This document shows positions 3,623-19,975 of a DNA stretch of 59,068 bases, piece by piece. The notes beneath the pieces are model-generated. The model searched no databases and was not told the origin of the DNA. It saw only the letters and a program-made list of their open reading frames with translations. Source of the stretch: Pseudomonadota bacterium (GTDB lineage Bacteria > Desulfobacterota > Desulfobacteria > Desulfobacterales > RPRI01); assembly GCA_043825875.1 (NCBI GenBank), contig JBDRRF010000075.1, forward strand, positions 1 to 59,068, in the 5' to 3' direction. Position 1 is the stretch's first letter, and each line of letters begins with the position of its first letter. The position numbers and the translations under genes were made by a program.

Positions 3623-4603
3623 ATGTCACGTCCACTTAGAATAGAATATCCGGGTGCTTGGTACCATGTCATGAACCGTGGCAGAAGGTTTGAGAATATA
3701 TTTTCAGACGATGCGGATTATGAAATGTTTGTCGAGCTTCTCAAAGATACATCGGAAATGTGGAATGTTAATATTGCCGCCTATTGTTTAATGTCTAATC
3801 ATTATCATATTCTATTGCAGACACCGGATGGAAATATCTCAAGAATCATGCGGCATATCAATGGCGTCTATACGCAAAGATTTAACAGAAAATACAGTCA
3901 AGACGGTCAACTATTTAGAGGTAGATATAAGTCGATTCTTGTAGGTGGAGACAGTTATTTATTACAACTTGTTCGATATATTCACCGGAATCCAATAAAA
4001 GCCGGCCTTGTTACGTCTTTGAATTCATATAAATGGAGCAGTCATAAAGGATACCTTTCTATAGCACAAAAATGGAGCTGGCTTCACAAGACATTTATTT
4101 TTTCACTTCTTACAAAAAACAAAGAAGAATGGATAAAAAAATACCGGCAATTTGTTTCTATTAAGGAAGATGATAATATCACCCAAGTAATTGAAGCAAA
4201 GAAATGGCCTTCTATATTGGGTCCTAATAATTTTTTAGATTGGGTTAAAGGCAAATATTATAAATCTATAAAAGACGAGGACATTCCTGAGTCAAAATTA
4301 CTTGATCCAAGCCAGAAATTAATTCTCGAAGTAGTATGTAAATATTATGCTGTAGATGAAAAAGATATTTATAAATCAAGACGAGGGTCATATAATGAAC
4401 CAAGAAATGTTTTGATTTATCTAATCAGACGTCTTAGGCAAGATCACATGAAGCAAATCGGCAAAGAATTTAATATAGAAAAGTCCACTTCTGTCAGCAG
4501 CATTGTTGAACGGGTTAAGAAGCAGTTGCAGTCAGATAAACCTTTGAAGAAACGAATTGATGATCTTATTAATATGGTCGATAAGAGCCAAAAGCGGACT
4601 TGA
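3623..4603 (+). CDS. REP-associated tyrosine (Y1/HUH) transposase, RAYT-like, with C-terminal DnaA_C-like HTH
   Basis: MSRPLRIEYPGAWYHVMNRG, YCLMSNHYHILL (HUH), GQLFRGRYKSILV, RYIHRNP, YKWSS; element end ...GGACTTGACCCC at 4596-4607. Confidence 0.9.
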   Translation: MSRPLRIEYPGAWYHVMNRGRRFENIFSDDADYEMFVELLKDTSEMWNVNIAAYCLMSNHYHILLQTPDGNISRIMRHINGVYTQRFNRKYSQDGQLFRGRYKSILVGGDSYLLQLVRYIHRNPIKAGLVTSLNSYKWSSHKGYLSIAQKWSWLHKTFIFSLLTKNKEEWIKKYRQFVSIKEDDNITQVIEAKKWPSILGPNNFLDWVKGKYYKSIKDEDIPESKLLDPSQKLILEVVCKYYAVDEKDIYKSRRGSYNEPRNVLIYLIRRLRQDHMKQIGKEFNIEKSTSVSSIVERVKKQLQSDKPLKKRIDDLINMVDKSQKRT

Positions 4604-4607
4604 CCCC

Positions 4608-4644
4608 TAAATTTTTGCTGCGCAGGTAATTTCCGCGTTCGAAT
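4608..4644 (+). mobile_element. right half of an interrupted attC site (#6)
   Basis: GCGCAGGTAATTTCCGC-GTTCGAAT; core 4637-4644 is complementary to ATTCGAAC 5187-5194 after the TA pair. Confidence 0.65.
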
Positions 4645-4667
4645 CCGCACTCATTTTTTCATGTAGG

Positions 4668-4695
4668 TTGACAAATTATACCAAATTGGTATATT
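4668..4695 (+). promoter_or_regulatory. sigma70 promoter with palindromic operator of the TA cassette
   Basis: TTGACA 4668-4673; inverted repeat TATACCAA-A-TTGGTATA 4677-4693 across the spacer and -10. Confidence 0.65.
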
Positions 4696-4704
4696 GTATA
4701 TACT

Positions 4705-4965
4705 ATGAATTTTGAATTTGATCCTAAAAAATCAGATAGCAACAAAAATAAGCATGGGATTGATTTTTTTGAGGCCCAAGAGCTTTGGAATGATATTGAT
4801 CTATTAGAAATTCCAGCTAAAACAACCGATGAATTGAGACTCCTGGTTATTGGAAAAATAAACGAAAAACACTGGACTGGGATTATCACATACCGCAATG
4901 ATAATATACGAATTATCTCAGTCCGGAGTGCCAGGAATGAGGAGATTGAGCTTTATGAAAGCTAA
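4705..4965 (+). CDS. brnT: BrnT-family toxin (RelE-like RNase)
   Basis: FEFDPKKSDSNKNKHGIDF...IRIISVRSAR signature. Confidence 0.9.
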   Translation: MNFEFDPKKSDSNKNKHGIDFFEAQELWNDIDLLEIPAKTTDELRLLVIGKINEKHWTGIITYRNDNIRIISVRSARNEEIELYES

Positions 4966-5185
4966 AGAATTAGATAAAATATTTGATGATGGTAAAAGCA
5001 TTTTAGAACATTTAGACCTCTCAAAGGCCAGACGGCCGAACCAGGAACAGAAAAGGGTTAATGTCGATTTTCCTCTCTGGATGATTCAGTCGCTTGATAG
5101 AGAAGCTAAACGTCTTGGTGTGCCTCGGCAATCGATTATTAAGATTTGGCTTGCTGAAAGATTACGCAAATCCGCTACCACATAA
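4955..5185 (+). CDS. brnA: BrnA/CopG-type RHH antitoxin
   Basis: MKAKELDKIFDDG...RVNVDFPLWMIQSLDREAKRLGVPRQSIIKIWLAERL; overlaps the toxin stop. Confidence 0.88.
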   Translation: MKAKELDKIFDDGKSILEHLDLSKARRPNQEQKRVNVDFPLWMIQSLDREAKRLGVPRQSIIKIWLAERLRKSATT

Positions 5186-5186
5186 T

Positions 5187-5286
5187 ATTCGAACCTGTCG
5201 TTCCACACTCGACCGGAAACCCGCACCTTTTTTCCCAAATAGTATAGGCTGAGTTAAACGTGGCTAAGGAAATAATGGGGTTACCC
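5187..5286 (+). mobile_element. left part of attC site #7, truncated by IS3 debris
   Basis: R'' ATTCGAAC right after the antitoxin stop; no matching right arm before the IS end at 5287. Confidence 0.55.
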
Positions 5287-5671
<385 letters not shown>

Positions 5672-6023: not shown

Positions 6024-6446
6024 ATGAACCATCTTACAAATGCTGCTGCGCGTTCATTTGCAACACTGTTTTTAACCGTTCTGGTTATTCATATGAGCCT
6101 GGTCATCCCACGTACGGAATGGTTGTGCCGGTGTGGCGATGAAATTTTGCATTCTGATTCATGCTGCTGCAATTGCCCCAAGTGTGTTGAAAAAAGGGAT
6201 GGTCTGCTTTCTTACTGCAATGGCCCGGAACAAAAGCACAAAGAGACACGGCAAAGACAATTTTTGGAAAATATGGGCTGTTCCTGCGGGCTTGGCCAAG
6301 TGGTCCTGAACCTGCCAGGAGATTCACCTTTTCTTCCGCTTGATCAGATAGCCGGTATATTCCCGACCAAAATTCATAAGGCTCCATCCAAAATAAACGG
6401 TTTCCTTTCTTATGTAACTTTTCTTATCGTCAAACCGCCCGGGTAA
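6024..6446 (+). CDS. Cys-rich exported small protein, DUF2946/CruR-like leader candidate
   Basis: N-terminal hydrophobic helix, CRC, CCCNCPKC, CSCG, Pro-rich C-terminus ending KPPG; lies upstream of a TonB receptor; alternative start at 5979. Confidence 0.6.
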   Translation: MNHLTNAAARSFATLFLTVLVIHMSLVIPRTEWLCRCGDEILHSDSCCCNCPKCVEKRDGLLSYCNGPEQKHKETRQRQFLENMGCSCGLGQVVLNLPGDSPFLPLDQIAGIFPTKIHKAPSKINGFLSYVTFLIVKPPG

Positions 6447-6771
6447 TTCATTACCATTCACCAAACATTATCCGCCATTGATATTAACACAGTAAGTTCT
6501 ATCGCTCATCCGAAGCACTACTCTTGAGGTTAGCGATACGCTCAGGTTATAAGCGCGGCTGGCTGTGTTGCTGATGGTTTTTATTCATTAACCATTCAAA
6601 ACATAAGATGGAGTTATAAGTTCGTGCCATGCTTTGGATGATTCAGTATCACGAATAAAGTTCTTTTGGTATTTGAAAGGAAACGTTTCTTTTCGAATGT
6701 TAACATGCAAGGGCTTGCGGATATGCAGACAAATAATTCCTTAAACCTGATTCAACGGAAAAGGAAAATAT

Positions 6772-8865
6772 ATGAGAAAAACTGAAATATTGGTTATAGT
6801 TATAATCATATTGGGTGCAGTAGTTTTCGTTATTAATTTACCGTCCTATGCGGAAGAAACAGATAAGGACATCGAAGAGGTTACGGTGCTTGACGAAATT
6901 ATAGTTACTGGTGCCCGCGTGGAAACCAAATTAAAAGAAACACCTGCCACAATAGATGTAATATCACAAAAGGAAATAGAAAAAGTCAAATATCGAAATG
7001 CAGGCGATCTGCTCAAAAGAGTACCGGGCATTTTCACCCAGAATCTTAATGGGGAAGAGGAACTTACATCCATTAGAGTTCCTACTCATTTTTCAAACCC
7101 CTATACACTTCTTTTAATAGACGGACTTCCGGCATCGAATTATGGTGAGTTGGCGGGCGGCCTTTTGAGAGAAATCAACAACAACAGCATTGAAAGTATC
7201 GAAATCATCAAGGGGCCGGCTTCCGCACTTTATGGGAGCAATGCAATAGGGGGTGTCATCAATGTAATAACCAAGGGCCCTTCAGAGGAACCATGGGTCA
7301 GGCCGTGGGCGGAATATGGCGAATACCATCAATGGCGGGGTGGCATATCCGGCGGAGGAACATACGGCACCGTTGGTTTTAATGCGGATACCATGTATAT
7401 TGATTCCGAAGAATGGAGAGAGCACTCCGCTCATGAAAAAAAAGCAGCAACGTTTAGGGCGCAATATGCACCAAATAATATATCTCTTCTCGACTTCAAG
7501 CTCGAATATATAAAACTGGAAAATGAAACAGCCAGCACATTAAGCGCCGAGGATTACAAAGAAGACTGGCAACAGAGTTATATGACCTTCACACAAATTA
7601 AACTTGAGAAGATTTCTCCCTCCCTGACTTATAGCATAGATACGTATGGTGGTGAGTTGAAAGTCGCAGCGCTCTTACGGCAGATAAACCACGATGTGAA
7701 TCCAAATTACGGCATCAGATATAATCAGAAAACCAAGGCTTATACTAGTTATCTATCTCAGATAGATGCTGTAGATGTTGACCTTCAGTTATTGTACTCA
7801 AGGAATTTTGATTTCTTCAAATCCCGGATAATAGGAGGAATGGACTTTGAGCGTGGCAATTCCGATGTTGAAACGTATGATTTGAAAGTAATTCGCGACC
7901 CGTTTACCGGAAAATATACTTCTTTTTCAAATAATGGTCTCGGGGAATCATTTGATGTTACGACATATGCCACAGCCCCCTATCTTCAGTTCCTCAGCAC
8001 ACCTTATGAAAATTGGCGGTTAACTTTCGGTGGAAGATACGACATGGTGAAGTATGATATTGAAGACAACCTGGGTGTTGCCAAAGACGGCAAGAAGAAC
8101 TTCTCAAGGTTTTCTCCCAAGGTGGGCATTACCTATGACATAAGCCCAAACCTCAATTTGTTTGCAAGTTATTCTCAGGGGTTTGTCGTTCCTACCGTCA
8201 GCCAGCTATTTACAGGCAGGGGCGCCAGCAAAGATCTTGATCCCGAAAAAGCGGATAATTATGAGGTGGGATTCAGAGGTACAACCTGTCAAAAAAAACT
8301 GAAGCTTGATTTGAGCTTCTACAGTATGAAGATCGATGACAAAATCATCGTTCAGACTGTGGACCCTGTAACTTCAGCTATAGAGTATCAAAACGTAGGA
8401 GAAACTTCCCACAGAGGAATAGAAGTGACACTGGGTGTTTTTCCACTGGACTGGATAAACCTGGTAATGTCGTATTCATATGCAAGGAATAACTATGAAC
8501 AGTTTGATGATCCGGTTTCGGGAAATGATTACAGTGATAACCGGATTCCTTTGGCACCGAAAAACAGATTCAATGCCAGGCTTGCTGTAAACCCCATCGA
8601 TCGAATGGTGCTGGAATTAGAAATGGATGTTCAGGACAAATATTATGTTGATGATGAAAACAGCGATACATACGACAGACCAACTTTATATAATCTGAGA
8701 GGATCATACGATTGGGAAGAATGGTCGTTATGGGTACACGCCTTGAATCTTTTTGATAAGAAATACGCTACAAGGGTTACGGCAAGCTCTGGTATATTTT
8801 CATATTTTCCGGGAAACCCGAGAACAATTTTCGTAGGACTTTCTTATAAGTGGGGTAAAAAATGA
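6772..8865 (+). CDS. TonB-dependent outer-membrane receptor
   Basis: Signal peptide, TonB box DEIIVTG, plug IESIEIIKGPASALYGSNAIGGVINVITK, LDPEKADNYEVG, NLFDKKY, C-terminal PRTIFVGLSYKW. Confidence 0.95.
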   Translation: MRKTEILVIVIIILGAVVFVINLPSYAEETDKDIEEVTVLDEIIVTGARVETKLKETPATIDVISQKEIEKVKYRNAGDLLKRVPGIFTQNLNGEEELTSIRVPTHFSNPYTLLLIDGLPASNYGELAGGLLREINNNSIESIEIIKGPASALYGSNAIGGVINVITKGPSEEPWVRPWAEYGEYHQWRGGISGGGTYGTVGFNADTMYIDSEEWREHSAHEKKAATFRAQYAPNNISLLDFKLEYIKLENETASTLSAEDYKEDWQQSYMTFTQIKLEKISPSLTYSIDTYGGELKVAALLRQINHDVNPNYGIRYNQKTKAYTSYLSQIDAVDVDLQLLYSRNFDFFKSRIIGGMDFERGNSDVETYDLKVIRDPFTGKYTSFSNNGLGESFDVTTYATAPYLQFLSTPYENWRLTFGGRYDMVKYDIEDNLGVAKDGKKNFSRFSPKVGITYDISPNLNLFASYSQGFVVPTVSQLFTGRGASKDLDPEKADNYEVGFRGTTCQKKLKLDLSFYSMKIDDKIIVQTVDPVTSAIEYQNVGETSHRGIEVTLGVFPLDWINLVMSYSYARNNYEQFDDPVSGNDYSDNRIPLAPKNRFNARLAVNPIDRMVLELEMDVQDKYYVDDENSDTYDRPTLYNLRGSYDWEEWSLWVHALNLFDKKYATRVTASSGIFSYFPGNPRTIFVGLSYKWGKK

Positions 8866-9854
8866 ACGGGATCATAAAAAGCCTTCCGCAAAAGCTATGT
8901 TTCTGGGCTGTTCTGACCCTTGTGGCTGTTTTAGCACCGTCTATCGGAAATACCCAGGATTTTGAACCGCTATTTCTTACGGAGGCGACGGCTAAGGAAC
9001 GGGGCGGTCATATCCAATTTGAATCCGAGCACCGGCCCCTGCCGTTTAGGCACTATCGTTTGAAATCGAAAATTCCTTATGGAAGCCTTCAGGCTTTTGT
9101 GCGCCACCCTGACGGTCAGTTATCGATTGCCCGGCTCCAAAAAGAAGAGAAAGGAGAAATGAACGTATCCTTCAAAACACCTCTTGGTGACGGTCCCATG
9201 CACGGCATCCATACCCTTTATGTAGTCGACCAACAAATCGAAGGTAATCGGCTCCTGGTCAGGACTGCCAAATGGCATACGATTCATCACAGTTGCGGTT
9301 GGGGTCACGGATACAAATACGATAAGGATCGTACAATAACTAAACCCCTTGCTGACGTTCCTCTGGAAATATCATGCCTGGAGCTTTGGGATGGCAACTT
9401 TCACTCCAGAGTGCAGTCGGGAGACCGGCTTAGATTCAGGGTTTTTTCTTACGGTGCTCCGGTGGCCGGTGCCAATATCAGACTGATAAGCGGTAAGGGG
9501 TGGATCAAACATGAAGTTACAGGTAAAGACGGTACGGCTGAATTTCAACTGGTCAGAGACTATTACCCAAAAAACTGGAAGTATTTTGACAGCCGGCATC
9601 GGGAAAGGTTCACAGTGGTGACCGAATACGAAAGCCCAAGCCAGGGACAATTTTCCGGAAAAGACTACAGCAGTGTCCGTTATATTTCCAGCATCCCCTG
9701 GACATATATTCCCTCAAGGAAGGAATATACTTCGACTGCCTTCGGTCTTTCAATAGGTTTACTCATCATAGCAATAGGAGCTCTGGGCTTTTATATATAT
9801 CGGGAACGTCGCAGGCGCCCTTACAGGGAGGTGATGTTCGATGAAAAAGATTAA
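8862..9854 (+). CDS. exported protein with C-terminal membrane anchor (DUF4198-like), His/Cys motif
   Basis: Signal peptide, HTIHHSCGWGH, PLEI...GDRLRFRVFSYGAPVAGA...TGKDGTAEF, C-terminal TM followed by RERRRR. Confidence 0.6.
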   Translation: MNGIIKSLPQKLCFWAVLTLVAVLAPSIGNTQDFEPLFLTEATAKERGGHIQFESEHRPLPFRHYRLKSKIPYGSLQAFVRHPDGQLSIARLQKEEKGEMNVSFKTPLGDGPMHGIHTLYVVDQQIEGNRLLVRTAKWHTIHHSCGWGHGYKYDKDRTITKPLADVPLEISCLELWDGNFHSRVQSGDRLRFRVFSYGAPVAGANIRLISGKGWIKHEVTGKDGTAEFQLVRDYYPKNWKYFDSRHRERFTVVTEYESPSQGQFSGKDYSSVRYISSIPWTYIPSRKEYTSTAFGLSIGLLIIAIGALGFYIYRERRRRPYREVMFDEKD

Positions 9855-10830
9855 AAAATTTCTCTACATGGCCGATATCGATCGATTCCGTTTTTATGTG
9901 CAAATTGCTTGTTTTTTTATTCTTATTTACGGTGGTTACCTGGCGCTGGATTTTGGCAGTCATCTGCCTACATTCGCCTGTCCTTTTAATAAAGGGGCAG
10001 GAGGAACCTGTTATCTGTATCCATTACAGCACCAGGTCAATATGCCCTTTCGCCAGATGTTTGGTGGCCGGGGAATCGGTTTTATAGCCGGGCTGGGAAC
10101 TTTTATTCTGCTTCTTATATTGTTTAACAAGTCTTGGTGTGGTTTCATCTGCCCTTTAGGTACCATACAGGACTGGATCACGCGACTTAGAGTCCGGGCC
10201 GGTATCCGCTACAGTATGTATTCGAAGAAAACATTTAAAAGGCTTAAGAAAATTAAGTATATTCTTCTCATACTGCTGGTGCTTTTGCCGCTTGGGATGA
10301 GCAATTCCATTTTCGGTCTTCCCCGCCTTTCCCATGAATGGGCTACACCCTATTGCATGATTTGTCCAGGGAGAACAGTACTTCCTCTGTTTTCGGGAGA
10401 CGTCACTCAGCTGGTTGTTGATTTTAGTTCTGGAACAAAAATGGTGCTGACCACTCTTGGAATGGTAGTGACCGGACTGTTTTTTTTGGGAGCTTTTATA
10501 AAAAGGCGTTTTTTTTGCCTGTTTTGTCCTATGAGTTCGCTTCAGTATCTGTTTTCTAAAATAGGTTTGTTGCGGCTGACCAAGGATGGCACAAAATGCA
10601 CACGTTGCGGAAATTGTCATAGAGTATGTGATATTGGTATAAGTGAGATTGCAGAAAATGTTGACAGCAAAAATATTGTTCAGGATGACTGCATGATGTG
10701 TTTCAAATGCGTTGCCGTTTGTCCGGAAGAAAACTGCCTGAAAGTCAGCTTCCTTGGAGCGACTTTATATGCAGCAACGGAGGAAGGATTTTTTAAACGG
10801 GCATCAAAGGAGAAAATAAGTGGAACCTGA
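9841..10830 (+). CDS. membrane polyferredoxin (NapH/MauN/CcoG-like 4Fe-4S binding protein)
   Basis: TM helices with WCGFICPLG, YCMICP, FCLFCPM; two ferredoxin motifs CTRCGNCHRVC and CMMCFKCVAVCP. Confidence 0.88.
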   Translation: MKKIKKFLYMADIDRFRFYVQIACFFILIYGGYLALDFGSHLPTFACPFNKGAGGTCYLYPLQHQVNMPFRQMFGGRGIGFIAGLGTFILLLILFNKSWCGFICPLGTIQDWITRLRVRAGIRYSMYSKKTFKRLKKIKYILLILLVLLPLGMSNSIFGLPRLSHEWATPYCMICPGRTVLPLFSGDVTQLVVDFSSGTKMVLTTLGMVVTGLFFLGAFIKRRFFCLFCPMSSLQYLFSKIGLLRLTKDGTKCTRCGNCHRVCDIGISEIAENVDSKNIVQDDCMMCFKCVAVCPEENCLKVSFLGATLYAATEEGFFKRASKEKISGT

Positions 10831-12085
10831 CCGGATAGAAAGACAAAAAATGACCATAAAAAAGCGTCTGCACTCAGAAAACCGTGAGACCCTTAAAAGG
10901 ATTGAACAGATAGGTGAGAGCTCCCCGGAAGCAATGCAGTATTTTTATGATGTTTTCACACACTGGGATAATCCAGCTGTCCTTGATGGAAATAAGCCGG
11001 TTATTGCAATAAGCTGCATGCAGGTGCCTCTGGAACTGATCCTTGCTTGTAATGCCTTGCCACTCCGACTCTGCAACGGTTCTCACGCATTGGAACAGGC
11101 GGGATCCGAGTTTTTGCCTGTTAAGACTTGCTCAATCGTAAAGGCCACAGTGGGTCTGGTAACAGCATTTCAGGAGCAGTTAAAAGATAGACTGGTTCTG
11201 GTGGTGGTTCCAACAACCTGTGATCAAAAACGAAAAGCCATCGAGACGCTAAGTGAAGGTGCGTTTAAGATATACTCCCTGGAAGTGCCGCCATCAAAAG
11301 ATACTGAAGAAGCCGCGATTTACTGGAGGAACTCGGTAAAAAAGCTGATTTTGGCTCTGGAAAAGGCCACCGGAATCCGGATTACAAAAAGAAATCTTAC
11401 CGCAGCCATAAACGGTGTACGGCAGGCATCCGCTCAATTCCGGCGGCTGTCCCGCATGCAGCAGCATAATCCGACGCTGCTTTACGGTAAAGATATGTTT
11501 ATGGTAATGAGTACTTTTCTCTTCGATGATATAAATCGGTGGACGGCTGCTGTAGCCCGATTGAACGACGAACTGGAAGTTCGTAAACAACATGGTATAT
11601 TTGCCGGCAAGGGGGCTCCCCGCATGCTGCTGACCGGATCTCCTCCCATGGCTCCCGGTTTCAAACTCCCGCTACTGCTGGAAGAAGCAGGAGCGGTTAT
11701 TGTAGCAGATGAGGTCTGCTCCTGTTCGAGGCTGTTGCATGATACGGTGGCTTATGGTGAATGGAGGCTTTATGATATGATACCGGCCGTTGCGGATCGA
11801 TATTTAAAGCCCTGTACCTGTCCTGTTTTCGATTCGGGAGAGGACCGCAGAAGAAAACTATCAGAGACTGTTCATCGCTTTGATGTAGACGGAGTGGTCT
11901 ATCAGAGCTATTCAGGGTGTTTTCTCTATCAGATGGAAGAGAGAGGCGTAAGCAATTCATTAAGAGGCGCTGATATTCCAATGCTGTTTGTGGAGACAGA
12001 CTACAGTACAGAAGACAGAGGGCAATTGACCACACGGCTTGAAGCTTTTGTGGAATCCATAAGATCCCGAAAAAGGAGAAAATGA
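10820..12085 (+). CDS. 2-hydroxyacyl-CoA dehydratase superfamily protein, double-cubane cluster protein (DCCP)-like
   Basis: Cys motifs ISC, RLC, KTC, TTCDQKRK, DEVC, PCTCP, SGC in one ~420-aa chain; C-terminal ETDYS...GQLTTRLEAFVE. Confidence 0.8.
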   Translation: MEPDRIERQKMTIKKRLHSENRETLKRIEQIGESSPEAMQYFYDVFTHWDNPAVLDGNKPVIAISCMQVPLELILACNALPLRLCNGSHALEQAGSEFLPVKTCSIVKATVGLVTAFQEQLKDRLVLVVVPTTCDQKRKAIETLSEGAFKIYSLEVPPSKDTEEAAIYWRNSVKKLILALEKATGIRITKRNLTAAINGVRQASAQFRRLSRMQQHNPTLLYGKDMFMVMSTFLFDDINRWTAAVARLNDELEVRKQHGIFAGKGAPRMLLTGSPPMAPGFKLPLLLEEAGAVIVADEVCSCSRLLHDTVAYGEWRLYDMIPAVADRYLKPCTCPVFDSGEDRRRKLSETVHRFDVDGVVYQSYSGCFLYQMEERGVSNSLRGADIPMLFVETDYSTEDRGQLTTRLEAFVESIRSRKRRK

Positions 12086-12088
12086 ACC

Positions 12089-12877
12089 ATGAAATTATTC
12101 TGTGGAATAGATATCGGTTCCTCAACAATTAAGATCGTTCTTATAGATGAGAAAGGCGATATAATTGCCAAAAACATTACACCCTCAGGACATCATTACT
12201 ACCGGAACGCCTCCGATGCCCTTACGCGCCTGCTTGATATGCATCGCATATCAAAAGATAACATATCCTTGACGGTTTCAACCGGATATGGCAGAAAATT
12301 GTTTAAGGAGGCCGATCTAAACATCAGTGAAATTACTGCCAATGCCATGGGAGTAAAAAGAGTGGAAGGGCATGGGACTCCTGTCAAAACAATCATCAAT
12401 ATAGGAGGTCAGGATTCTAAGGTAATTCTTCTGGACGATGACGGCGGTGTGAAAGAATTTTGTATGAACGATAAATGTGCTGCAGGAACAGGCAGCTTCC
12501 TCGAAATGACAGCAAAAAATATGGGAGTAACTCTTGAAGAATTGGGTCGATGGCGCATGGATACCGGAAAGATACCTGTAACAATTAACAGTACCTGCAC
12601 CGTCTTTGCGGCATCGGAGATCATCAGCCTACTTGCAGACGGGTATGAAAAGGGTGAGATTATTGCTGGTGTTCATTCAGCTGTCGCAAGAAGAGTTGCC
12701 CACCTCGCTTACAGGATTGATATTAAGGACAGGGTTCTCTTAGATGGGGGCGGAGCCATGAATTGCGGACTCAAATCAGCTCTGGAAGATGAGCTGATGC
12801 GGGATATAACTGTTCCTGAAATCCCCCAGATCACCACGGCCATTGGTGCGGCGCTTTATGCACGTGAAGGTTTATAA
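12089..12877 (+). CDS. ATP-dependent [4Fe-4S] activase (HgdC/BcrAD/DCCP-R, ASKHA family)
   Basis: GIDIGSS, TGYGR, IGGQDSK, MNDKCAAGTGSFLE, STCTVFAASE. Confidence 0.93.
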   Translation: MKLFCGIDIGSSTIKIVLIDEKGDIIAKNITPSGHHYYRNASDALTRLLDMHRISKDNISLTVSTGYGRKLFKEADLNISEITANAMGVKRVEGHGTPVKTIINIGGQDSKVILLDDDGGVKEFCMNDKCAAGTGSFLEMTAKNMGVTLEELGRWRMDTGKIPVTINSTCTVFAASEIISLLADGYEKGEIIAGVHSAVARRVAHLAYRIDIKDRVLLDGGGAMNCGLKSALEDELMRDITVPEIPQITTAIGAALYAREGL

Positions 12878-12887
12878 AGGGATTTTT

Positions 12888-13436
12888 ATGAAAAACTGGT
12901 TTATAATCCGATTATCGCGGCAACTCTTACCAGAAAAGGCATTTTGGTTTTTCCTTCTTGCAGCATCGGTTCTTTTGCTTTTTGCAAACCAAGGATGTTA
13001 TGATAAAACCAGCAGGCCGGTTATGGGACAAAAAGCACCCGATTTTTCCTGCCGGTGCATTAATGACTCGCGGCAGGAACTTAGCCAATTTAAAGGCAAT
13101 GTGGTGCTGATAAGGTTTTGGGCGGATTGGTGCCGTTCCTGTGTAAAGGAGATGCCTATCATCGATAAATACTACCGTAGTGCAAAAAACAAGGGTTTTG
13201 TAGTTCTTGCTGTAAACGTAAAGCAATCCAGAGCAGATATTGAGGCTTTCGCCAGGAAATTCAAGCTATCATTTCCCATCGTACTGGATGAGGAAGGTAA
13301 GATCACCAAAATATATGATGTCAAGAGAGTCCCTACCCATTTTCTGATAGACCGGGATGGAATTATTCGGAGTATATATTTAGGCCCTATCGGCGATGAG
13401 AATGAGCTGGCCAAATTTCTTGAGCCTTATTTGTAA
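12888..13436 (+). CDS. TlpA/ResA-like thiol-disulfide oxidoreductase (membrane/lipoprotein anchored)
   Basis: APDF, FWADWCRSCVKEMP, VPTHFLIDRDG; N-terminal hydrophobic segment with ANQGC. Confidence 0.9.
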   Translation: MKNWFIIRLSRQLLPEKAFWFFLLAASVLLLFANQGCYDKTSRPVMGQKAPDFSCRCINDSRQELSQFKGNVVLIRFWADWCRSCVKEMPIIDKYYRSAKNKGFVVLAVNVKQSRADIEAFARKFKLSFPIVLDEEGKITKIYDVKRVPTHFLIDRDGIIRSIYLGPIGDENELAKFLEPYL

Positions 13437-14016: not shown

Positions 14017-15348
14017 TTGAAAATACTGGAAAAAGCTCCAGATTGGAAAAACCTGTTCAAAGAATGCTTTACTCCTGAACTGGCAACAAAGACTATCGAT
14101 GTTGTAAAAAAGGCAAACAGCGAATATTTCTATTGGGATAATTTCAAATATCAGCCGATGCCCGATGATGTTACGCCGGAGTCGGCATGGGTAATGGTAA
14201 AAACATCAAGACTGTTTCAGACCAGACACATTTTACTTGCTGATTCAAAAGGGAGCCAATTTGGCTACTGGCTCCCGGATTGCGTTCTTAAGGAAATTCA
14301 TTATATAGATCAGCAGGCGGGTGGGACTATTCTTGTTGATGATCCTTCAGTCCATTCGGATGAAAAGCAGAGGTATATGGTAAGGTCATTAATAGACGAG
14401 GCAATATCATCCAGCCAAATAGAAGGAGCGGCAACCACAAGGGTTGTTGCAAAAGAGATGTTCAGGATGGGCAGAAAACCCAGGGACCGCTCCGAACAGA
14501 TGATATATAATAACTATCAATCAATGCAGATGATAAAGAAACATCTGCCGGAGCCTCTTACCATTGATTTGATAAATAGAATTCACACCTCCATGACGGA
14601 AAGTACTCTTGAAGTTTCTTCATGGGCCGGAAGATTCAGAACTGCTGATGATGAAGAGATCCATGTCTTCAACAACGACGGACAGATCCTTCATACTCCG
14701 ACAAAAGCTGCTGATGTTCCTGACTTGATAGAGGCTTTGTGCAATTTTGCAAACAAGGACAGTAATGATGAGTTTGTTAACCCAATCATAAAAGGGATAC
14801 TGATTCATTTCTGGCTTGCATATGTCCATCCTTTTATGGACGGAAACGGGCGTATGGCAAGAGCGCTTTTTTATTGGTACATGCTCAAACATAAGTACTG
14901 GCTCTTTGAGTACCTTTCGCTATCGACTGCGATACTGAGCTCTCGTAGCCAATATTACAAGTCGTTTCTTTATTCCGAGACGGATGACAATGACGCCACG
15001 TATTTTATTGTCTATAATTTAAAGGCTATTCATAATGCGCTGGAAATGTTGAATGTATATATTGAGAGAAAGCAGAAAGAAAAAAGAAATGCTTATCGGT
15101 TTGTCGTGAATTATCCTTCGCTGAACTTAAGGCAACGTGCCCTTCTTGCAAGCGCCCTAGAAAAACCCGAGGAGATATATTCAATAGAGAAGCATTCAAA
15201 CGTTCATGGTGTTACCTATCAGACTGCGAGAACCGATCTGCTTTCTCTCAGAGATATGGGGTTGCTTGAGATGAGAAAAGAAGGCAAGAAATACATATTC
15301 GAACCGGTTGCTGATATAGCGATAAAGCTTGACGGCAGCAAGGTGTAG
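14017..15348 (+). CDS. Fic-family protein with C-terminal HTH
   Basis: HPFMDGNGRMARA Fic motif; N-terminal SSQIEG inhibitory motif; C-terminal VTYQTARTDLLSL HTH; TTG start. Confidence 0.92.
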   Translation: MKILEKAPDWKNLFKECFTPELATKTIDVVKKANSEYFYWDNFKYQPMPDDVTPESAWVMVKTSRLFQTRHILLADSKGSQFGYWLPDCVLKEIHYIDQQAGGTILVDDPSVHSDEKQRYMVRSLIDEAISSSQIEGAATTRVVAKEMFRMGRKPRDRSEQMIYNNYQSMQMIKKHLPEPLTIDLINRIHTSMTESTLEVSSWAGRFRTADDEEIHVFNNDGQILHTPTKAADVPDLIEALCNFANKDSNDEFVNPIIKGILIHFWLAYVHPFMDGNGRMARALFYWYMLKHKYWLFEYLSLSTAILSSRSQYYKSFLYSETDDNDATYFIVYNLKAIHNALEMLNVYIERKQKEKRNAYRFVVNYPSLNLRQRALLASALEKPEEIYSIEKHSNVHGVTYQTARTDLLSLRDMGLLEMRKEGKKYIFEPVADIAIKLDGSKV

Positions 15349-15685: not shown

Positions 15686-16072
15686 ATGAGTAAAACCAAA
15701 GGACAAATTGAAGCTGAAATCTGCGATGCAGTGATCAAATTTGAAAAAGAGTACATGGGCCGGGGTCCCTTGGAAACCAAGGCTTATATAATCGACGACA
15801 TAGTTTTGGTGCGCCTTAAAAGCGTGCTCACGATGGCAGAGATCAAACTTGCTGAAGCAACTGACCGTAAAGACGGGCGCGAATTAATAAAACGCATCAG
15901 AATTACTCTGCTAGAGCAAGGCCGTCCCCTGCTGGAGGCAGCGGTAGAGGAAATCGTCGGCGTAAAAGTAAAGAGTCTACACACAGATATCAGCACTGTT
16001 ACCGGTGAACGTGTGATCATTTTCTCGTTGGTATCTCCTCCTTCCTTTGCCCAAAGTCGCAATCGGGCATAA
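15686..16072 (+). CDS. DUF2294 / MpsC-family protein
   Basis: TKGQIEAEI...FEKEYMGRGP...SLHTDISTVTGERVIIFSL. Confidence 0.85.
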   Translation: MSKTKGQIEAEICDAVIKFEKEYMGRGPLETKAYIIDDIVLVRLKSVLTMAEIKLAEATDRKDGRELIKRIRITLLEQGRPLLEAAVEEIVGVKVKSLHTDISTVTGERVIIFSLVSPPSFAQSRNRA

Positions 16073-16120
16073 AGATTTTTTGTTTTCCGCCGGAACCAAA
16101 ATAATTTCTGAATAAATTGC

Positions 16121-16148
16121 TTGACAAGAATTGTGCACATGATATTTT
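16121..16148 (+). promoter_or_regulatory. sigma70 promoter (extended -10) upstream of the structured leader
   Basis: TTGACA 16121-16126, TG-A-TATTTT 16140-16148. Confidence 0.6.
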
Positions 16149-16169
16149 TAAACAAATTTTAACCTGTCT

Positions 16170-16330
16170 GAATACTGGCGCTATGGCGGCGATCTTCTTC
16201 GGAAGGGTTATAAGTCTTTAAAATTGATTGCCTGAGAGTTTAAACGGGCCCTTTGCCAAGAGGTAAAGGGTGCGAAAAAAATATGAGGCCACGATTCGTT
16301 TCTTTGAAACGAATCGTGGCCTTTTTTTTT
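16170..16330 (+). ncRNA. candidate cis-regulatory leader RNA (attenuator/riboswitch-like)
   Basis: C(UUCG)G hairpin 16194-16205, 10-bp hairpin 16248-16271, then a terminator; lies between the promoter and the carboxylase genes. Confidence 0.55.
16286..16330 (+). terminator. intrinsic terminator inside the 5' leader
   Basis: Perfect 17-bp stem AGGCCACGATTCGTTTC/GAAACGAATCGTGGCCT followed by a T run. Confidence 0.85.
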
Positions 16331-16397
16331 GGATAATTCACAAAAGAAGCAAAGGCCATAAACGCAAAAACGGAAACATACTCCTTTGAGGCATGCC

Positions 16398-17765
16398 ATG
16401 TTTGATAAAGTTTTGATTGCTGACCGCGGTGAAATTGCAATTCGAATCATGCGCACTTGTAATCGTATGGGTATCAGCACAGTTGCAGTATATTCCGACG
16501 CGGAAAGTCACAGCCTGCATCGTCAGATGGCAAATGAATCAATACATATTGGTGGGCCGTGCGTCCAGGAATCCTATCTTAACGGGGAAAGGATAATTTA
16601 CGCCGCTCTTGAAACCGGTTGCCAGGCTATTCATCCCGGTTATGGTTTTTTATCTGAAAATGCAATATTTGCAAGAAGCGTGGAGACCGCGGGCTTAACT
16701 TTCATCGGTCCGTCAGCCGGAGTTATCGCTATGTTGAGCGACAAGATCACCGCCAAGAATCTGGCCATCAAGGCAGGTGTGCCGGTCATTCCGGGCCATT
16801 CGGATACCTTGAAAGATGAAGACGAAGCGCTGGCATTGGCGGAATCCATCGGTTATCCGGTGTTGCTCAAACCTGTGGCAGGTTGCAACGCTAAGGGTCT
16901 GCGTATTGTGTATGGACCGGGCGAAATGGAGGCTGCGATTGCGGCCAGCCGTCAGGAAACACGCAAGGCATTTGGTAATAGCCGGATTTTTATGGAGCGT
17001 TTTATTGAACAATCCCGTCATGTGGAAATTCAGATCCTGGCCGATTCTTTGGGTAACGTAGTTCATCTGGGTGAAAGAGAGTGCTCGATCCAGAGACAAT
17101 ATCAAAAATTTATCGCAGAATCTCCGTCGCCTGCTGTGTCCGAAGACTTAAGACGGCGCATGGGCCAAGCTGCCTGCGATCTGGCACGCAAAGTCGGCTA
17201 TATTAATACTGGGACAATTGAGTTCATTCTGGATGCCCACGGGGCTTTCTATTTTCTGGAGATAAACCCCCACCTTCCTGAGGAGCATGCGGTAACCGAA
17301 CTGCTGACAGGACTGGATCTGGTGGAACTCCAGCTACGAATTGCCTGCGACGAGGCTCTTCCGTGCGACCAGGCAAGCTTAATTTTTGACGGATGGGCTA
17401 TACAAGCGCATATTTATGCTGAAGATCCAAACAGGGATTTCATACCCTCCACTGGTATAATCACCCGTTATTCCGAGCCTAATGGCAATGCCATCCGGGT
17501 AGACAGCGGAGTGAAAGCGGGCAGCAGGATCGGCAGCTATTACGACTCATTGCTGGCCAAAGTTATATCCCACGGCAAAGAAAGAGAAACAGCACGTAAC
17601 GGACTTGTGGAAGCATTAAACGGCTATTATATCGGGGGGGTTGCTACAAATATCGATTTTGCCAACAGATTGATGAGTCATTCTGAATTCGCAAAAGGCA
17701 ATTTTAACACAAATTTTATAAACCGGCATTTCAACACCATAAGAAGATATATGCAAGCGGTATAG
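16398..17765 (+). CDS. biotin carboxylase (AccC/PccA-like ATP-grasp), active-site degenerate, no BCCP domain
   Basis: DRGEIA, HPGYGFLSEN, ERECSIQR, YYDSLLAK retained; T-loop GCNAKG, EINPHLPEEH and AHIYAED deviate from GGGGRG, EMNTRIQVEH and CRINAED. Confidence 0.85.
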   Translation: MFDKVLIADRGEIAIRIMRTCNRMGISTVAVYSDAESHSLHRQMANESIHIGGPCVQESYLNGERIIYAALETGCQAIHPGYGFLSENAIFARSVETAGLTFIGPSAGVIAMLSDKITAKNLAIKAGVPVIPGHSDTLKDEDEALALAESIGYPVLLKPVAGCNAKGLRIVYGPGEMEAAIAASRQETRKAFGNSRIFMERFIEQSRHVEIQILADSLGNVVHLGERECSIQRQYQKFIAESPSPAVSEDLRRRMGQAACDLARKVGYINTGTIEFILDAHGAFYFLEINPHLPEEHAVTELLTGLDLVELQLRIACDEALPCDQASLIFDGWAIQAHIYAEDPNRDFIPSTGIITRYSEPNGNAIRVDSGVKAGSRIGSYYDSLLAKVISHGKERETARNGLVEALNGYYIGGVATNIDFANRLMSHSEFAKGNFNTNFINRHFNTIRRYMQAV

Positions 17766-17794
17766 ACACCGGAGGAATCTTTACCGAAACGGTT
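17741..17794 (+). pseudogene. degenerate copy of a hydantoinase A N-terminus
   Basis: Translates KKIYASGIDTGGIFTETV, matching KEKYIIGIDTGGTFTDTV at 17856-17909. Confidence 0.6.
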
Positions 17795-17843
17795 AAAATA
17801 ATAATTCAAAGAAACAGAATAATAACTAAAAGGGGAGAATGAT

Positions 17844-19949
17844 ATGTCAGAAAATAAGGAGAAGTACATAATAGGAATAGATACCGGAGGGACATTTACC
17901 GATACGGTAATCATAGATAAACACGGTAAAATTACTATCGGCAAAGCTCTCACAAATTACGGGGATCTTAAGGCGGGTGTTATCAGTTCCCTGCGGGATG
18001 GAGCATCCGAGATGGGGAAAAAACTTGAAGATATTTTGCCTAATACGGTTTATGTGGGACACGGCACGACTCTTGGAACCAATGCGGTTATAAACCGAAC
18101 ATTCGGCAAAGTAGGTCTTTTAACCACAGCCGGGCACGAGGATATTTCCATCATTATGAGAGCCGGAGCCAAAACCGATGGTTTGAGTGAAGATGAAGTC
18201 AAACACCAGGCTACCTGCCGCAAACCTGAGCCGCTTGTGCCCCGGCCATTGATTAAAGGCATAGTTGAACGTATGGACTGCTTCGGCAAAGCAGTAATTC
18301 CCCTGGATCTCAAACAGGCTAAACAGGCAATTGACGAGCTGGCGGCTGAAGGATGCGAGGCGATAGCCATATGTCTGTTATGGTCTTTTACGAATGCGGA
18401 ACATGAAATTGCGTTAAAAAAGCTGGTAGAGGAGAATTATCCGGATATTTATTTAGCGGTATCTCATGAAATATCTCCCAAACTCAGAGAATATGCCCGA
18501 ACAATGACTGTTATTATTGATGCCTGTATCGGAAAACTTACCCGTGAATACATTGATTCATTAAACAAGGAGCTGAAGAATTCCGGGTTGAAGCAGGATA
18601 TTTCCATTATGCATGCTTACGGCGGTGTTACCAGCTGGGAGACCGCAAGACCTGTTTCCACGATTGAGTCAGGGCCTGTAGGCGGTGTTGTTGGAAGCAA
18701 ATTCTTAGGTAACGTTCTTGGAGAAAAAAACATAATCACAACAGATGTCGGCGGCACGAGTTTTGACGTAAGCGTTCTGGCAGACGGTGAATGGTCTTTC
18801 AAAAAAGAGCCTATCATGATGCGCTTTCGTGTAACTATCCCGATTATCAACATCACATGTATCGGAGCGGCAGGCGGAACAATCTCAAGAATCGATCCTG
18901 TTACAGGCGGCCTTAAAGTAGGACCCGACAGTGCAGGTTCCACCCCAGGCCCTGTTTGCTATGAGCGTGGAGGAGAAGAACCCACAGTAACCGATGTTGA
19001 TGTTGTACTTGGTTATCTGAATCCCGGTTATTTCTTCGGCGGCAAGCTTACTATAAATAAAGATAAAGCTTACAAGGCTATCAAAGAAAAAATTGCCGAT
19101 CCGCTTTGCATGGATGTTGTTCAGGCAGCAGCCGGTATATATGATATTATCAATTCTTTCATGGCAGATAACTTAAGGCAATCGGTAATTGACAAAGGCC
19201 ATGATCCGAGGGATTTCGTCCTTCTTTCTTACGGCGGCAACGGGCCCATGCACTGTGCATCTTTTGCTAAGGATCTCGGGGCTAAAAAAGTTATAATTCC
19301 TCCTCAGTCTTCGGTGTTTTCCGCATTCGGCATTGCCTGTTCGGATGTTATTCATGTTTACACCCAGACCGATGTTAATATTATGCCGGCTGATCCTATG
19401 CATCTGAACACCGTTTTTGAAGAAATGGAAAAGCATGCGATAGCAGATATGGCTCTTGAAGGCATAGCAGCAGCAGATGTTGAGCTTCACCGTGAGCTGG
19501 ATTTAAGATATAACAGGCAGGTGCATGAAGTTAATATTCCGGCTCCGACCAAAAAGCTTAATGCTGAGGATGTACGGCAGATTATGAACGATTGGGAAGC
19601 CAGATACGAGCAAATCTACGGCAAGGGTTCAGGATTCCGTGAAGCGGGAATGCAGGTTGTAACTTTCAGGTTGAATGCTGTAAGTAAACTTCTTAAACCT
19701 TCTCTTGAAAAGGCTTCCTATGAACCTATAGCCGATTCTTCACCGGCTGTTAAAGGGACCAGACCCGCATTTTTCAGAAAATTCAATGACTATGCAGAAA
19801 CCAATATCTACGATTCCAGGAAGCTGAAATACGGCAACAAGATAGAAGGCCCGGCCATTATCGAAACACCAAGCACCACGATGGTCATCCTTCCCGATCA
19901 AAAGGCGGAGGTTGATGCTTACATGAACGTGGTTATCGTAAAACTTTAA
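17844..19949 (+). CDS. hydantoinase/oxoprolinase A family (acetone/acetophenone carboxylase beta-like ATPase subunit)
   Basis: GIDTGGTFTD, HGTT, ESGPVGG, DVGGTSFDV, GPDSAGSTPGPVCY, YGGNGPMH, FSAFG. Confidence 0.93.
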   Translation: MSENKEKYIIGIDTGGTFTDTVIIDKHGKITIGKALTNYGDLKAGVISSLRDGASEMGKKLEDILPNTVYVGHGTTLGTNAVINRTFGKVGLLTTAGHEDISIIMRAGAKTDGLSEDEVKHQATCRKPEPLVPRPLIKGIVERMDCFGKAVIPLDLKQAKQAIDELAAEGCEAIAICLLWSFTNAEHEIALKKLVEENYPDIYLAVSHEISPKLREYARTMTVIIDACIGKLTREYIDSLNKELKNSGLKQDISIMHAYGGVTSWETARPVSTIESGPVGGVVGSKFLGNVLGEKNIITTDVGGTSFDVSVLADGEWSFKKEPIMMRFRVTIPIINITCIGAAGGTISRIDPVTGGLKVGPDSAGSTPGPVCYERGGEEPTVTDVDVVLGYLNPGYFFGGKLTINKDKAYKAIKEKIADPLCMDVVQAAAGIYDIINSFMADNLRQSVIDKGHDPRDFVLLSYGGNGPMHCASFAKDLGAKKVIIPPQSSVFSAFGIACSDVIHVYTQTDVNIMPADPMHLNTVFEEMEKHAIADMALEGIAAADVELHRELDLRYNRQVHEVNIPAPTKKLNAEDVRQIMNDWEARYEQIYGKGSGFREAGMQVVTFRLNAVSKLLKPSLEKASYEPIADSSPAVKGTRPAFFRKFNDYAETNIYDSRKLKYGNKIEGPAIIETPSTTMVILPDQKAEVDAYMNVVIVKL

Positions 19950-19975
19950 TTTTTGACCGAAGAGGAGGAATATAT

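Follow-up and report, generated by a model that had tools for sequence, protein, structure and literature searches.

Organization and conservation of the operon

The window analysed here is the whole of contig JBDRRF010000075.1 (59,068 nucleotides) of assembly GCA_043825875.1, from a bacterium of the Desulfobacterales (phylum Desulfobacterota). It carries an operon in which the gene for a TonB-dependent receptor is followed by genes for an exported His/Cys protein, a membrane polyferredoxin, a double-cubane cluster protein (DCCP), the ATP-dependent reductase of the latter (DCCP-R, or activase) and a TlpA-like lipoprotein. An initial annotation, made from the letters alone, had listed these six plus-strand open reading frames (ORFs) with junctions at 8862/8865, 9841/9854, 10820/10830, 12085/12089 and 12877/12888. 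The coordinates are verified, the six family labels are borne out by Pfam and NCBIfam scans, and the exported protein does carry HTIHHSCGWGH and, at residues 294-312, a C-terminal anchor. The initial annotation had overlooked a seventh gene, a Cys-rich leader ORF at the start of the stretch (Table 1).

The exported His/Cys protein was used as bait, by which 28 genome loci and 44 metagenome loci were found. For the counts of gene order the duplicate L030 was dropped, seven loci added from other searches were subtracted, and only loci with enough flank were considered; some of the counted loci are close relatives and hence not independent. The receptor lies directly upstream of the exported protein in 47/49 related loci. 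The polyferredoxin directly follows the exported protein in 52/52, the DCCP the polyferredoxin in 43/43 and the activase the DCCP in 35/35. Generally the next gene encodes a DsbD_2 membrane protein (31/35), and ExbBD/TonB genes lie within 5 kb in 26/27. In the reverse test, across 401 genomes of the phylum, all seven best DCCP matches have the polyferredoxin directly upstream, and the next three examined lack it. Compared with 20 other DCCPs, those of the module fall into a single clade (quick tree, SH-aLRT 99; FastTree 0.999). The unit is also found in Spirochaetota and Campylobacterota, so that its fixed order spans three phyla, and it recurs in Sulfurovum mangrovi, where the exported domain is fused to a second polyferredoxin. 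Many of the hosts are sulfur-cycle taxa.

Gene-order comparison thus shows a swappable TonB receptor in front of a fixed four-gene module, usually followed by DsbD_2 and ExbBD-TonB. The order kept across related loci rules out chance juxtaposition for the receptor, exported protein, polyferredoxin, DCCP and activase, and it is almost certain that this gene set is a real functional unit. No description of the operon was found in a literature search limited to open-access papers.

The TlpA-like protein has to be left out of the unit. It had been proposed as a core "periplasmic thiol relay"; among related loci it directly follows the activase in 0/35 and lies within 5 kb in 1/27, and it was rejected as a core member. 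The conserved tail is DsbD_2-ExbB-ExbD-TonB. The window copy has neither DsbD_2 nor ExbBD-TonB after the activase, and ExbBD-TonB sets are present elsewhere in the host genome. In the closest relative, L029, the activase is followed in turn by a repeat protein, exbB, exbD, tonB and tlpA, and the ribosome-binding site (RBS) and start after its activase resemble those of the window. This gene order suggests a deletion in the window copy, in which the loss of four genes probably placed TlpA beside the activase.

Table 1. Genes and features of the operon (positions in the window)
Feature	Position	Strand	Basis or remark
Leader ORF	6024-6446	+	140 aa, Cys-rich; CutF/CruR-like metal-sensing upstream ORF by rule
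Spacer, leader ORF to receptor	6447-6771	+	325 nt; without riboswitch or RegA-type box
TonB-dependent receptor, subtype A	6772-8865	+	PF00593 + PF07715
Exported, C-terminally anchored DUF4198-fold protein	8862-9854	+	Weak DUF4198, fold match
Polyferredoxin, NapH/YccM/CcoG-like, four transmembrane (TM) segments	9841-10830	+	Fer4_5 + dicluster
DCCP, 421 aa	10820-12085	+	HGD-D; GTG start, strong RBS
ASKHA-type ATP-dependent reductase (DCCP-R/activase)	12089-12877	+	BcrAD_BadFG/TIGR00241
TlpA/ResA-like lipoprotein (WCRSC), accessory	12888-13436	+	Family scan

The double-cubane protein and its reductase

The assignment to the DCCP/DCCP-R pair, put forward from the single Cys-rich chain and its adjacent activase, was checked by alignment and holds. 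The window DCCP matches the solved structures 6ENO and 7YYL at E 1e-57, and subunits of dehydratases and benzoyl-CoA reductases at E 1e-13 or weaker. Cys 66, 85, 104, 134, 300, 334 and 367 align with the 6ENO cysteines. Their spacing, X18-X18-X29-X165-X33-X32, is within one residue of the published motif CX19CX18-19CX29CX166-170CX32-34CX32C, reported in a paper in which three classes are proposed (PMC7317905). Among 38 aligned orthologues six cluster Cys are present in 38/38, C85 in 37/38 and an extra C332 in 36/38. In all 38 the first Cys is preceded by at least 63 residues, a class-I trait, and the window DCCP keeps the class-I-like N-terminal extension, of the type that closes the CoA channel.

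The best NCBIfam model of the window DCCP is NF040772 double_cubane, at 309.6 bits against a cut-off of 350. That cut-off is passed by 6/10 same-clade orthologues scanned and therefore runs through the clade. The HadC and BzdN models score 73 bits (cut-off 700) and 47 bits (cut-off 454), and the two subunits with three Cys each that mark dehydratases and benzoyl-CoA reductases are replaced here by one gene with seven Cys. The reductase scores 229 bits with TIGR00241, over the cut-off, matches HadI, HgdC and DCCP-R, and keeps cluster Cys 130 and 170 in 37/37 aligned sequences.

With the Carboxydothermus hydrogenoformans pair (CHY_0487/0488; 6ENO, 7YYL) the window proteins share a single chain of about 420 aa, the seven-Cys motif, the N-terminal extension and an adjacent ASKHA reductase with two cluster Cys. 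The two DCCPs are about one-third identical and belong to separate clades, and that of the window has an extra Cys (CTC). Unlike the C. hydrogenoformans protein, the DCCP of the module is in every case accompanied by a membrane polyferredoxin and an exported protein encoded in the same TonB operon. Published accounts state that no physiological function is known for double-cubane proteins (PMC7317905, PMC9351452). The SAO system outlined in a preprint by Haft and Gwadz likewise combines uptake genes with nearby double-cubane proteins in anaerobes and an inferred metal link. As described there, SAO is an ABC-based selenoprotein cassette to which the DCCP is loosely linked, whereas the present module is without sao genes and has a fixed membrane Fe-S partner. 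No Sao model (saoTECXLBPAD) is among the matches listed for seven window proteins, and the conserved neighbours belong to other families.

The membrane polyferredoxin and predicted docking of the DCCP

The polyferredoxin has four TM segments, two 4Fe-4S motifs, and the motifs CxxxCP and CxxCP. Four further Cys (47, 57, 172 and 175), in the TM1-2 and TM3-4 loops, are invariant in 38/38, and the alternate topology would place these loops outside, on the periplasmic face. The protein scores 65 bits with TIGR02163 (NapH/MauN), far under the cut-off of 213. CcoG/YccM-type motifs are present, the second as CxxCP, and TIGR02745 is not among the matches listed. Apart from the ferredoxin motif, neither sequence nor fold comparison turned up a solved homologue, the fold search giving no match at E <=0.001. 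The CcoG/YccM cupric reductases and NapH/MauN share with it four TM helices, two 4Fe-4S motifs and CxxxCP-type motifs; it differs from them in the four invariant loop Cys and in its partner, which is an ATP-driven DCCP and not quinol or NapG.

The proposed coupling of the DCCP to this membrane Fe-S protein was followed up by complex modelling and gained support: the predicted complex scores 0.77, against 0.00 for the best of three controls. The mark applied to this score is reached by 116/157 solved complexes and 2/215 mismatched pairs, counts that are only roughly valid with our own alignments. At least 83% of the contacts are common to the runs, and the partner pLDDT is at least 79. In the model DCCP residues 311-331, beside C332/C334, lie on polyferredoxin residues 254-262, at the first ferredoxin motif. 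The DCCP is thus predicted to dock on the cytoplasmic ferredoxin domain beside cluster ligand C334. In the solved DCCP:DCCP-R complex the reductase is reported to contact R110/N111 and the D400-Q408 region (PMC9351452); the window equivalents (about 101-102 and 394-402 in the 6ENO alignment) are outside the listed polyferredoxin interface. As the reductase is the ATP-driven donor, the direction of flow would be outward from it, and it is likely that the DCCP hands its electrons to the membrane protein.

The exported protein and the receptor

In the exported protein H57, H143, C145, H149 and H181, within ESEH and HHxCxWGH motifs, are invariant in 48/48. Its model (pLDDT 86.9) resembles Zcp (Z 17.7, rmsd 3.1 A over 197 aligned residues; Foldseek E 3.6e-9) and the Ni-bound IsDUF4198 (Z 14.6), compared with Z <=7.5 for unrelated folds, and has the tandem beta-sandwich of DUF4198. 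The PF10670 gathering score is not reached (22 bits against 34), and there is no His after the signal peptide, the first conserved one being H57. Zcp of Neisseria is reported to use three His for binding Zn, Cu, Co and Ni (PMC12663993), and IsDUF4198 is described as binding Ni (PMC12537917). Both share with the exported protein a fold, an export signal and a link to TonB receptors. The exported protein differs from them at 13-15% identity, with a C-terminal membrane anchor, no N-terminal His, another His/Cys set and a tie to a redox module. The difference in ligand set argues for likeness of fold over membership: on the model, the protein resembles DUF4198 in fold and is not a member of that family. 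It is a candidate metal-capture protein. In Campylobacterota a DUF4198-fold domain is fused to a Fer4_5 membrane protein, with or without NosL.

The exported protein also lies within a wider unnamed family (P0097-P0213) of 215 representatives at E <=0.001, in which an HxCxxGH-like motif is kept in 50/111 full-length distant members.

Two unrelated receptor subtypes, A (26/41) and B (15/41), occupy the same slot, which makes the receptor swappable. Among the matches listed, that of the window reaches the cut-off of no named NCBIfam family. It scores best with TIGR01783 (siderophore), and reaches 149 bits with BtuB (cut-off 600) and 147 bits with PqqU (cut-off 1200); OprC/NosA TIGR01778 is not among the best 25 of the 34 families matched. 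The nearest solved relative is YncD/PqqU (E 4.5e-30).

Upstream elements

Upstream elements were counted over 39 operons with upstream sequence. In the window the leader ORF has a hydrophobic N-terminus, a Cys-rich middle (CRCG, CCCNCPKC, CSCG) and a C-terminal ...KPPG. It is 61% identical to the L029 copy, with differences by codon position of 38/29/60, a third-position bias that indicates coding constraint. A CutF/CruR-like rule was applied, namely fewer than 150 aa, an export signal at the N-terminus, PP within the final 15 residues, a same-strand gene within 1 kb and a Cys motif. The leader ORF satisfies it, its export signal being judged by hydropathy only, and 14/5395 similar-length ORFs of the host genome share its three sequence features. 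CutF/CruR-like leaders head 7/39 operons, none with the RegA-type box described below; an eighth rule match, in L010, looks like chance. Such criteria have been used for CutF-like proteins, of which most Cys-rich members are reported to precede Cu genes (PMC9973294), and CruR is described as heading a Cu-repressed TonB operon (PMC9426467). With CruR of Bordetella and CutF of Rhodobacter the leader shares a short exported-type ORF with a Cys motif, a C-terminal PP and a long spacer before a TonB operon, and it has many more Cys. By this analogy it probably gates operon expression by metal level in the host genome. No riboswitch was found in the window at the Rfam gathering score, with two chance-level matches upstream. 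The spacer folds no better than shuffles (z -1.1), and a RegA motif scan of it was empty.

Elsewhere, by a matrix built from the same sites, 22/39 operons have the RegA-type box TGCGACAAWWTGCCACA some 20 nt upstream of a TGGTA-like element. RegB/RegA-like genes lie near the operon in L006, L010, L012, L027 and L047. Those scanned have ActR/PrrA/RegA and ActS/PrrB/RegB as best models, under cut-off, and their GGxxNPF motif binds quinone. As an independent test, the published PrrA consensus (PMC5506826), with one mismatch allowed, was found in 15/39 operons and in 26 of about 600 random windows. The host-genome operon is without the RegA box, and RegA and RegB queries of that genome gave generic two-component matches only, partial and at <=44% identity.

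A RegA-type box also precedes NosL genes, a regBA-like pair and a PhsA-like molybdopterin reductase locus (L006, L010, L012, L027), which outlines a RegA-like regulon in Desulfobacterota.

A DeoR-NosL regulator, the build of YcnK of Bacillus subtilis, adjoins 4/39 operons. YcnK is described as a Cu regulator in that species (PMC12154828), and the NosL family was matched in the B. subtilis control.

Metal clues and proposed mechanism

An OprC-type copper receptor adjoins three loci, at one of them over the TIGR01778 cut-off, and copper-chaperone-type neighbours among the operons include NosL (6), PCuAC (1) and FtrD-like proteins (2). In the host genome the copper-related content is a multicopper-oxidase-domain protein and a NosL pair. 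In the Spirochaetota locus L133 a sister module stands behind a cobalamin riboswitch and BtuFCD-like genes and is followed by a gene labelled NikR-like by recognition. A metal chelate, a corrinoid or a sulfur or selenium compound had all been suggested as substrate. Leader ORF, regulators and neighbours now point towards a trace metal, for this branch Cu and for the sister locus B12, Co or Ni, and selenium is without specific support.

From the conserved unit and the predicted docking we infer a flow of electrons across the membrane to a metal. The reductase would hydrolyse ATP and place a low-potential electron on the double-cubane cluster, and the DCCP, instead of turning over a free substrate, would pass it to the polyferredoxin. 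The latter would relay it through its CxxxCP/CxxCP site to the four outer-face Cys, where a locked metal complex imported by the receptor, a chelate or a sulfide or thiolate, would be reduced or unlocked. The anchored protein would capture the freed metal at its His/Cys site, for transfer to DsbD_2 or periplasmic chaperones. In the host genome ExbBD-TonB would have to come from another locus. Metal acquisition is the probable purpose of the module; that the metal is copper is rather less secure, at slightly under an even chance. For the full reading, a trace-metal acquisition system on an ATP-driven electron wire with Cu most likely in this branch, the balance is about even. The module works like reductive metal assimilation and belongs to no described system, SAO and CcoG sharing parts only.

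Several observations weigh against the copper-acquisition reading. Free Cu(II) is easily reduced and needs no ATP-driven reductant, so that copper would have to be held in an unusually locked form. No heme-copper oxidase or NosZ was found in the host genome, which is 99.8% complete. Cuproenzyme enrichment among operon genomes was considered and set aside as weak only: PF00115, a family that includes NO reductases, occurs in 18/35 of them against 76/201 of the phylum. The OprC CxxxM-HxM motif is absent from both receptor subtypes. The leader ORF has no DUF2946 (PF11162) match at E <=1 and ends in KPPG, not RAPP, in which it differs from CruR and CutF. The commonest upstream element is the RegA-type redox box, not a metal sensor. 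As to the wire itself, the complex model gives no direction of electron flow, and it was folded with one DCCP chain, so that part of the interface may coincide with the homodimer surface. With the one query used, the host genome yielded no DsbD_2 orthologue, and the window copy may be a reduced one.

Alternative explanations

The chemistry could be wholly cytoplasmic, the polyferredoxin being a CcoG-type metal reductase or a membrane anchor and donor, and the DCCP reducing a small imported molecule while nothing crosses the membrane. The predicted DCCP-polyferredoxin interface is indeed wholly cytoplasmic. CcoG is reported to reduce Cu(II) and to contain two Cu sites beside its two 4Fe-4S clusters (PMC7558416), and the C. 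hydrogenoformans DCCP, whose class-I extension the window DCCP keeps, to reduce acetylene at its own cluster (PMC7317905). We hold this to be unlikely: the four extra loop Cys of the polyferredoxin are invariant, and the conserved core is without an ABC permease, the sole candidate, DsbD_2, being absent in 4/35 loci and in the window. Far less credible, and highly improbable, is a pair of ordinary 2-hydroxyacyl-CoA dehydratase and activase genes placed by chance beside an unrelated TonB operon. Pfam and RefSeq do name the pair dehydratase family and activase, but the single seven-Cys chain is no alpha/beta pair, the order is fixed across three phyla and the DCCPs form a dedicated clade, in line with the initial view that ordinary dehydratase function does not fit.

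The same wiring might carry another cargo, a corrinoid or cobalt, nickel or a ferric chelate instead of copper, also in the window branch. Fe-siderophore and Co(II)/Co(I) couples need very low potentials. The best, sub-cut-off match of the window receptor is the siderophore family, L133 has the cobalamin and nickel neighbours named above, and L110 and L108 have canonical DUF4198 genes, the L110 receptor scoring best with a B12 family. Against this, L133, L108, L109 and L110 lack the HHxCxWGH motif of the window branch, and a cobalamin riboswitch was found neither in the window nor in 17 other module loci or flanks; the scan covered 21 sources, two of them flanking stretches, and its two matches were L133 and an unrelated DCCP locus, L112. 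No Fur-like box was seen by eye in the upstream regions, where no formal test was made. Another cargo in this branch is improbable. More doubtful still is a role in sulfur, selenium or redox balance, by which polysulfide, sulfur or Se compounds would be imported and reductively opened, or electrons dumped under RegB/RegA control. The prevalence of the RegA-type box and of nearby RegB/RegA-like genes (five loci), the same box before the PhsA-like reductase locus in L027 and the many sulfur-cycle hosts speak for it, and DCCPs are reported to correlate with SelD in the preprint of Haft and Gwadz. That link was dropped as uninformative, SelD being near-universal in the phylum (77/81 in a sample, against 33/34 operon genomes), and the aligned module genes show no selenocysteine-type split. 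No DCCP or activase row was found in the differential-expression supplement of Sulfurovum MH2-6, where a "yncD" receptor row could not be assigned to the operon; the operon is unmentioned in the sulfur-disproportionation literature searched, and the exported protein has a metal-capture fold.

Other double-cubane loci and flanking genes

Generic DCCPs stand downstream of TonB receptors at L111:8995-13775 and L112:8919-13514, one of them behind a cobalamin riboswitch; the coupling of TonB receptors to DCCPs seems to have evolved on more than one occasion. The host genome has a second, different TonB-DCCP cluster on contig C31 (L073:13346-19879 and L074:11-9370), with an activase, a CU-motif TonB receptor, a repeat protein, exbBD-tonB, a DCCP (484 bits) and TauABC-like ABC genes, continuing with a molybdopterin oxidoreductase and napG/napH-like genes. 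Its receptor is split at an in-frame TGC-TGA, likely selenocysteine, with NF049946 over cut-off for the first part, and the substrate-binding gene is likewise split. A third DCCP-activase pair (contig C76, L075:5526-9451) lies directly upstream of selD and yedF, which agrees with the reported link between DCCPs and selenium. On contig C114 (L121:7046-11594) two NosL genes are clustered with FtsX-type ABC genes and the gene for a 339-aa membrane protein that has no annotation; the same cluster adjoins the operon in L010 and L027.

Around the operon (window 3623-5638 and 14017-15348) are an IS200-like transposase with a DnaA-type helix-turn-helix, a Fic-domain gene and, both labelled by recognition, a small two-gene toxin-antitoxin-like pair and a chimeric transposase remnant, which together suggest a mobile or rearranged region. 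Further downstream (window 15686-22165) hydantoinase A/B genes come after a biotin carboxylase gene; the second of them includes a fused acetone-carboxylase gamma-like domain, and the set may encode an ATP-dependent carboxylase or hydrolase.

Implications for double-cubane proteins

The operon gives the DCCP class a fixed partner, a predicted docking site beside a cluster ligand and candidate regulators, and Sulfurovum mangrovi, a cultured host of the unit, makes the role of a DCCP directly testable. Tentatively, the DCCP clade may have no free substrate and may be the middle of an ATP wire that runs from the reductase through [8Fe-9S] and the polyferredoxin to the periplasmic Cys site, exports very low-potential electrons across the inner membrane and unlocks metals held in the sulfide, thiolate or chelate complexes that TonB receptors capture, the module being plugged into Cu-, B12/Co/Ni- and redox-controlled operons. 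If this is true, outward, ATP-paid electron pumping would be a new route by which anaerobes reach Cu, Co or Ni locked by sulfide, and ATP-powered reductive metal mining in sulfidic and anoxic habitats would be a physiological role for a DCCP.

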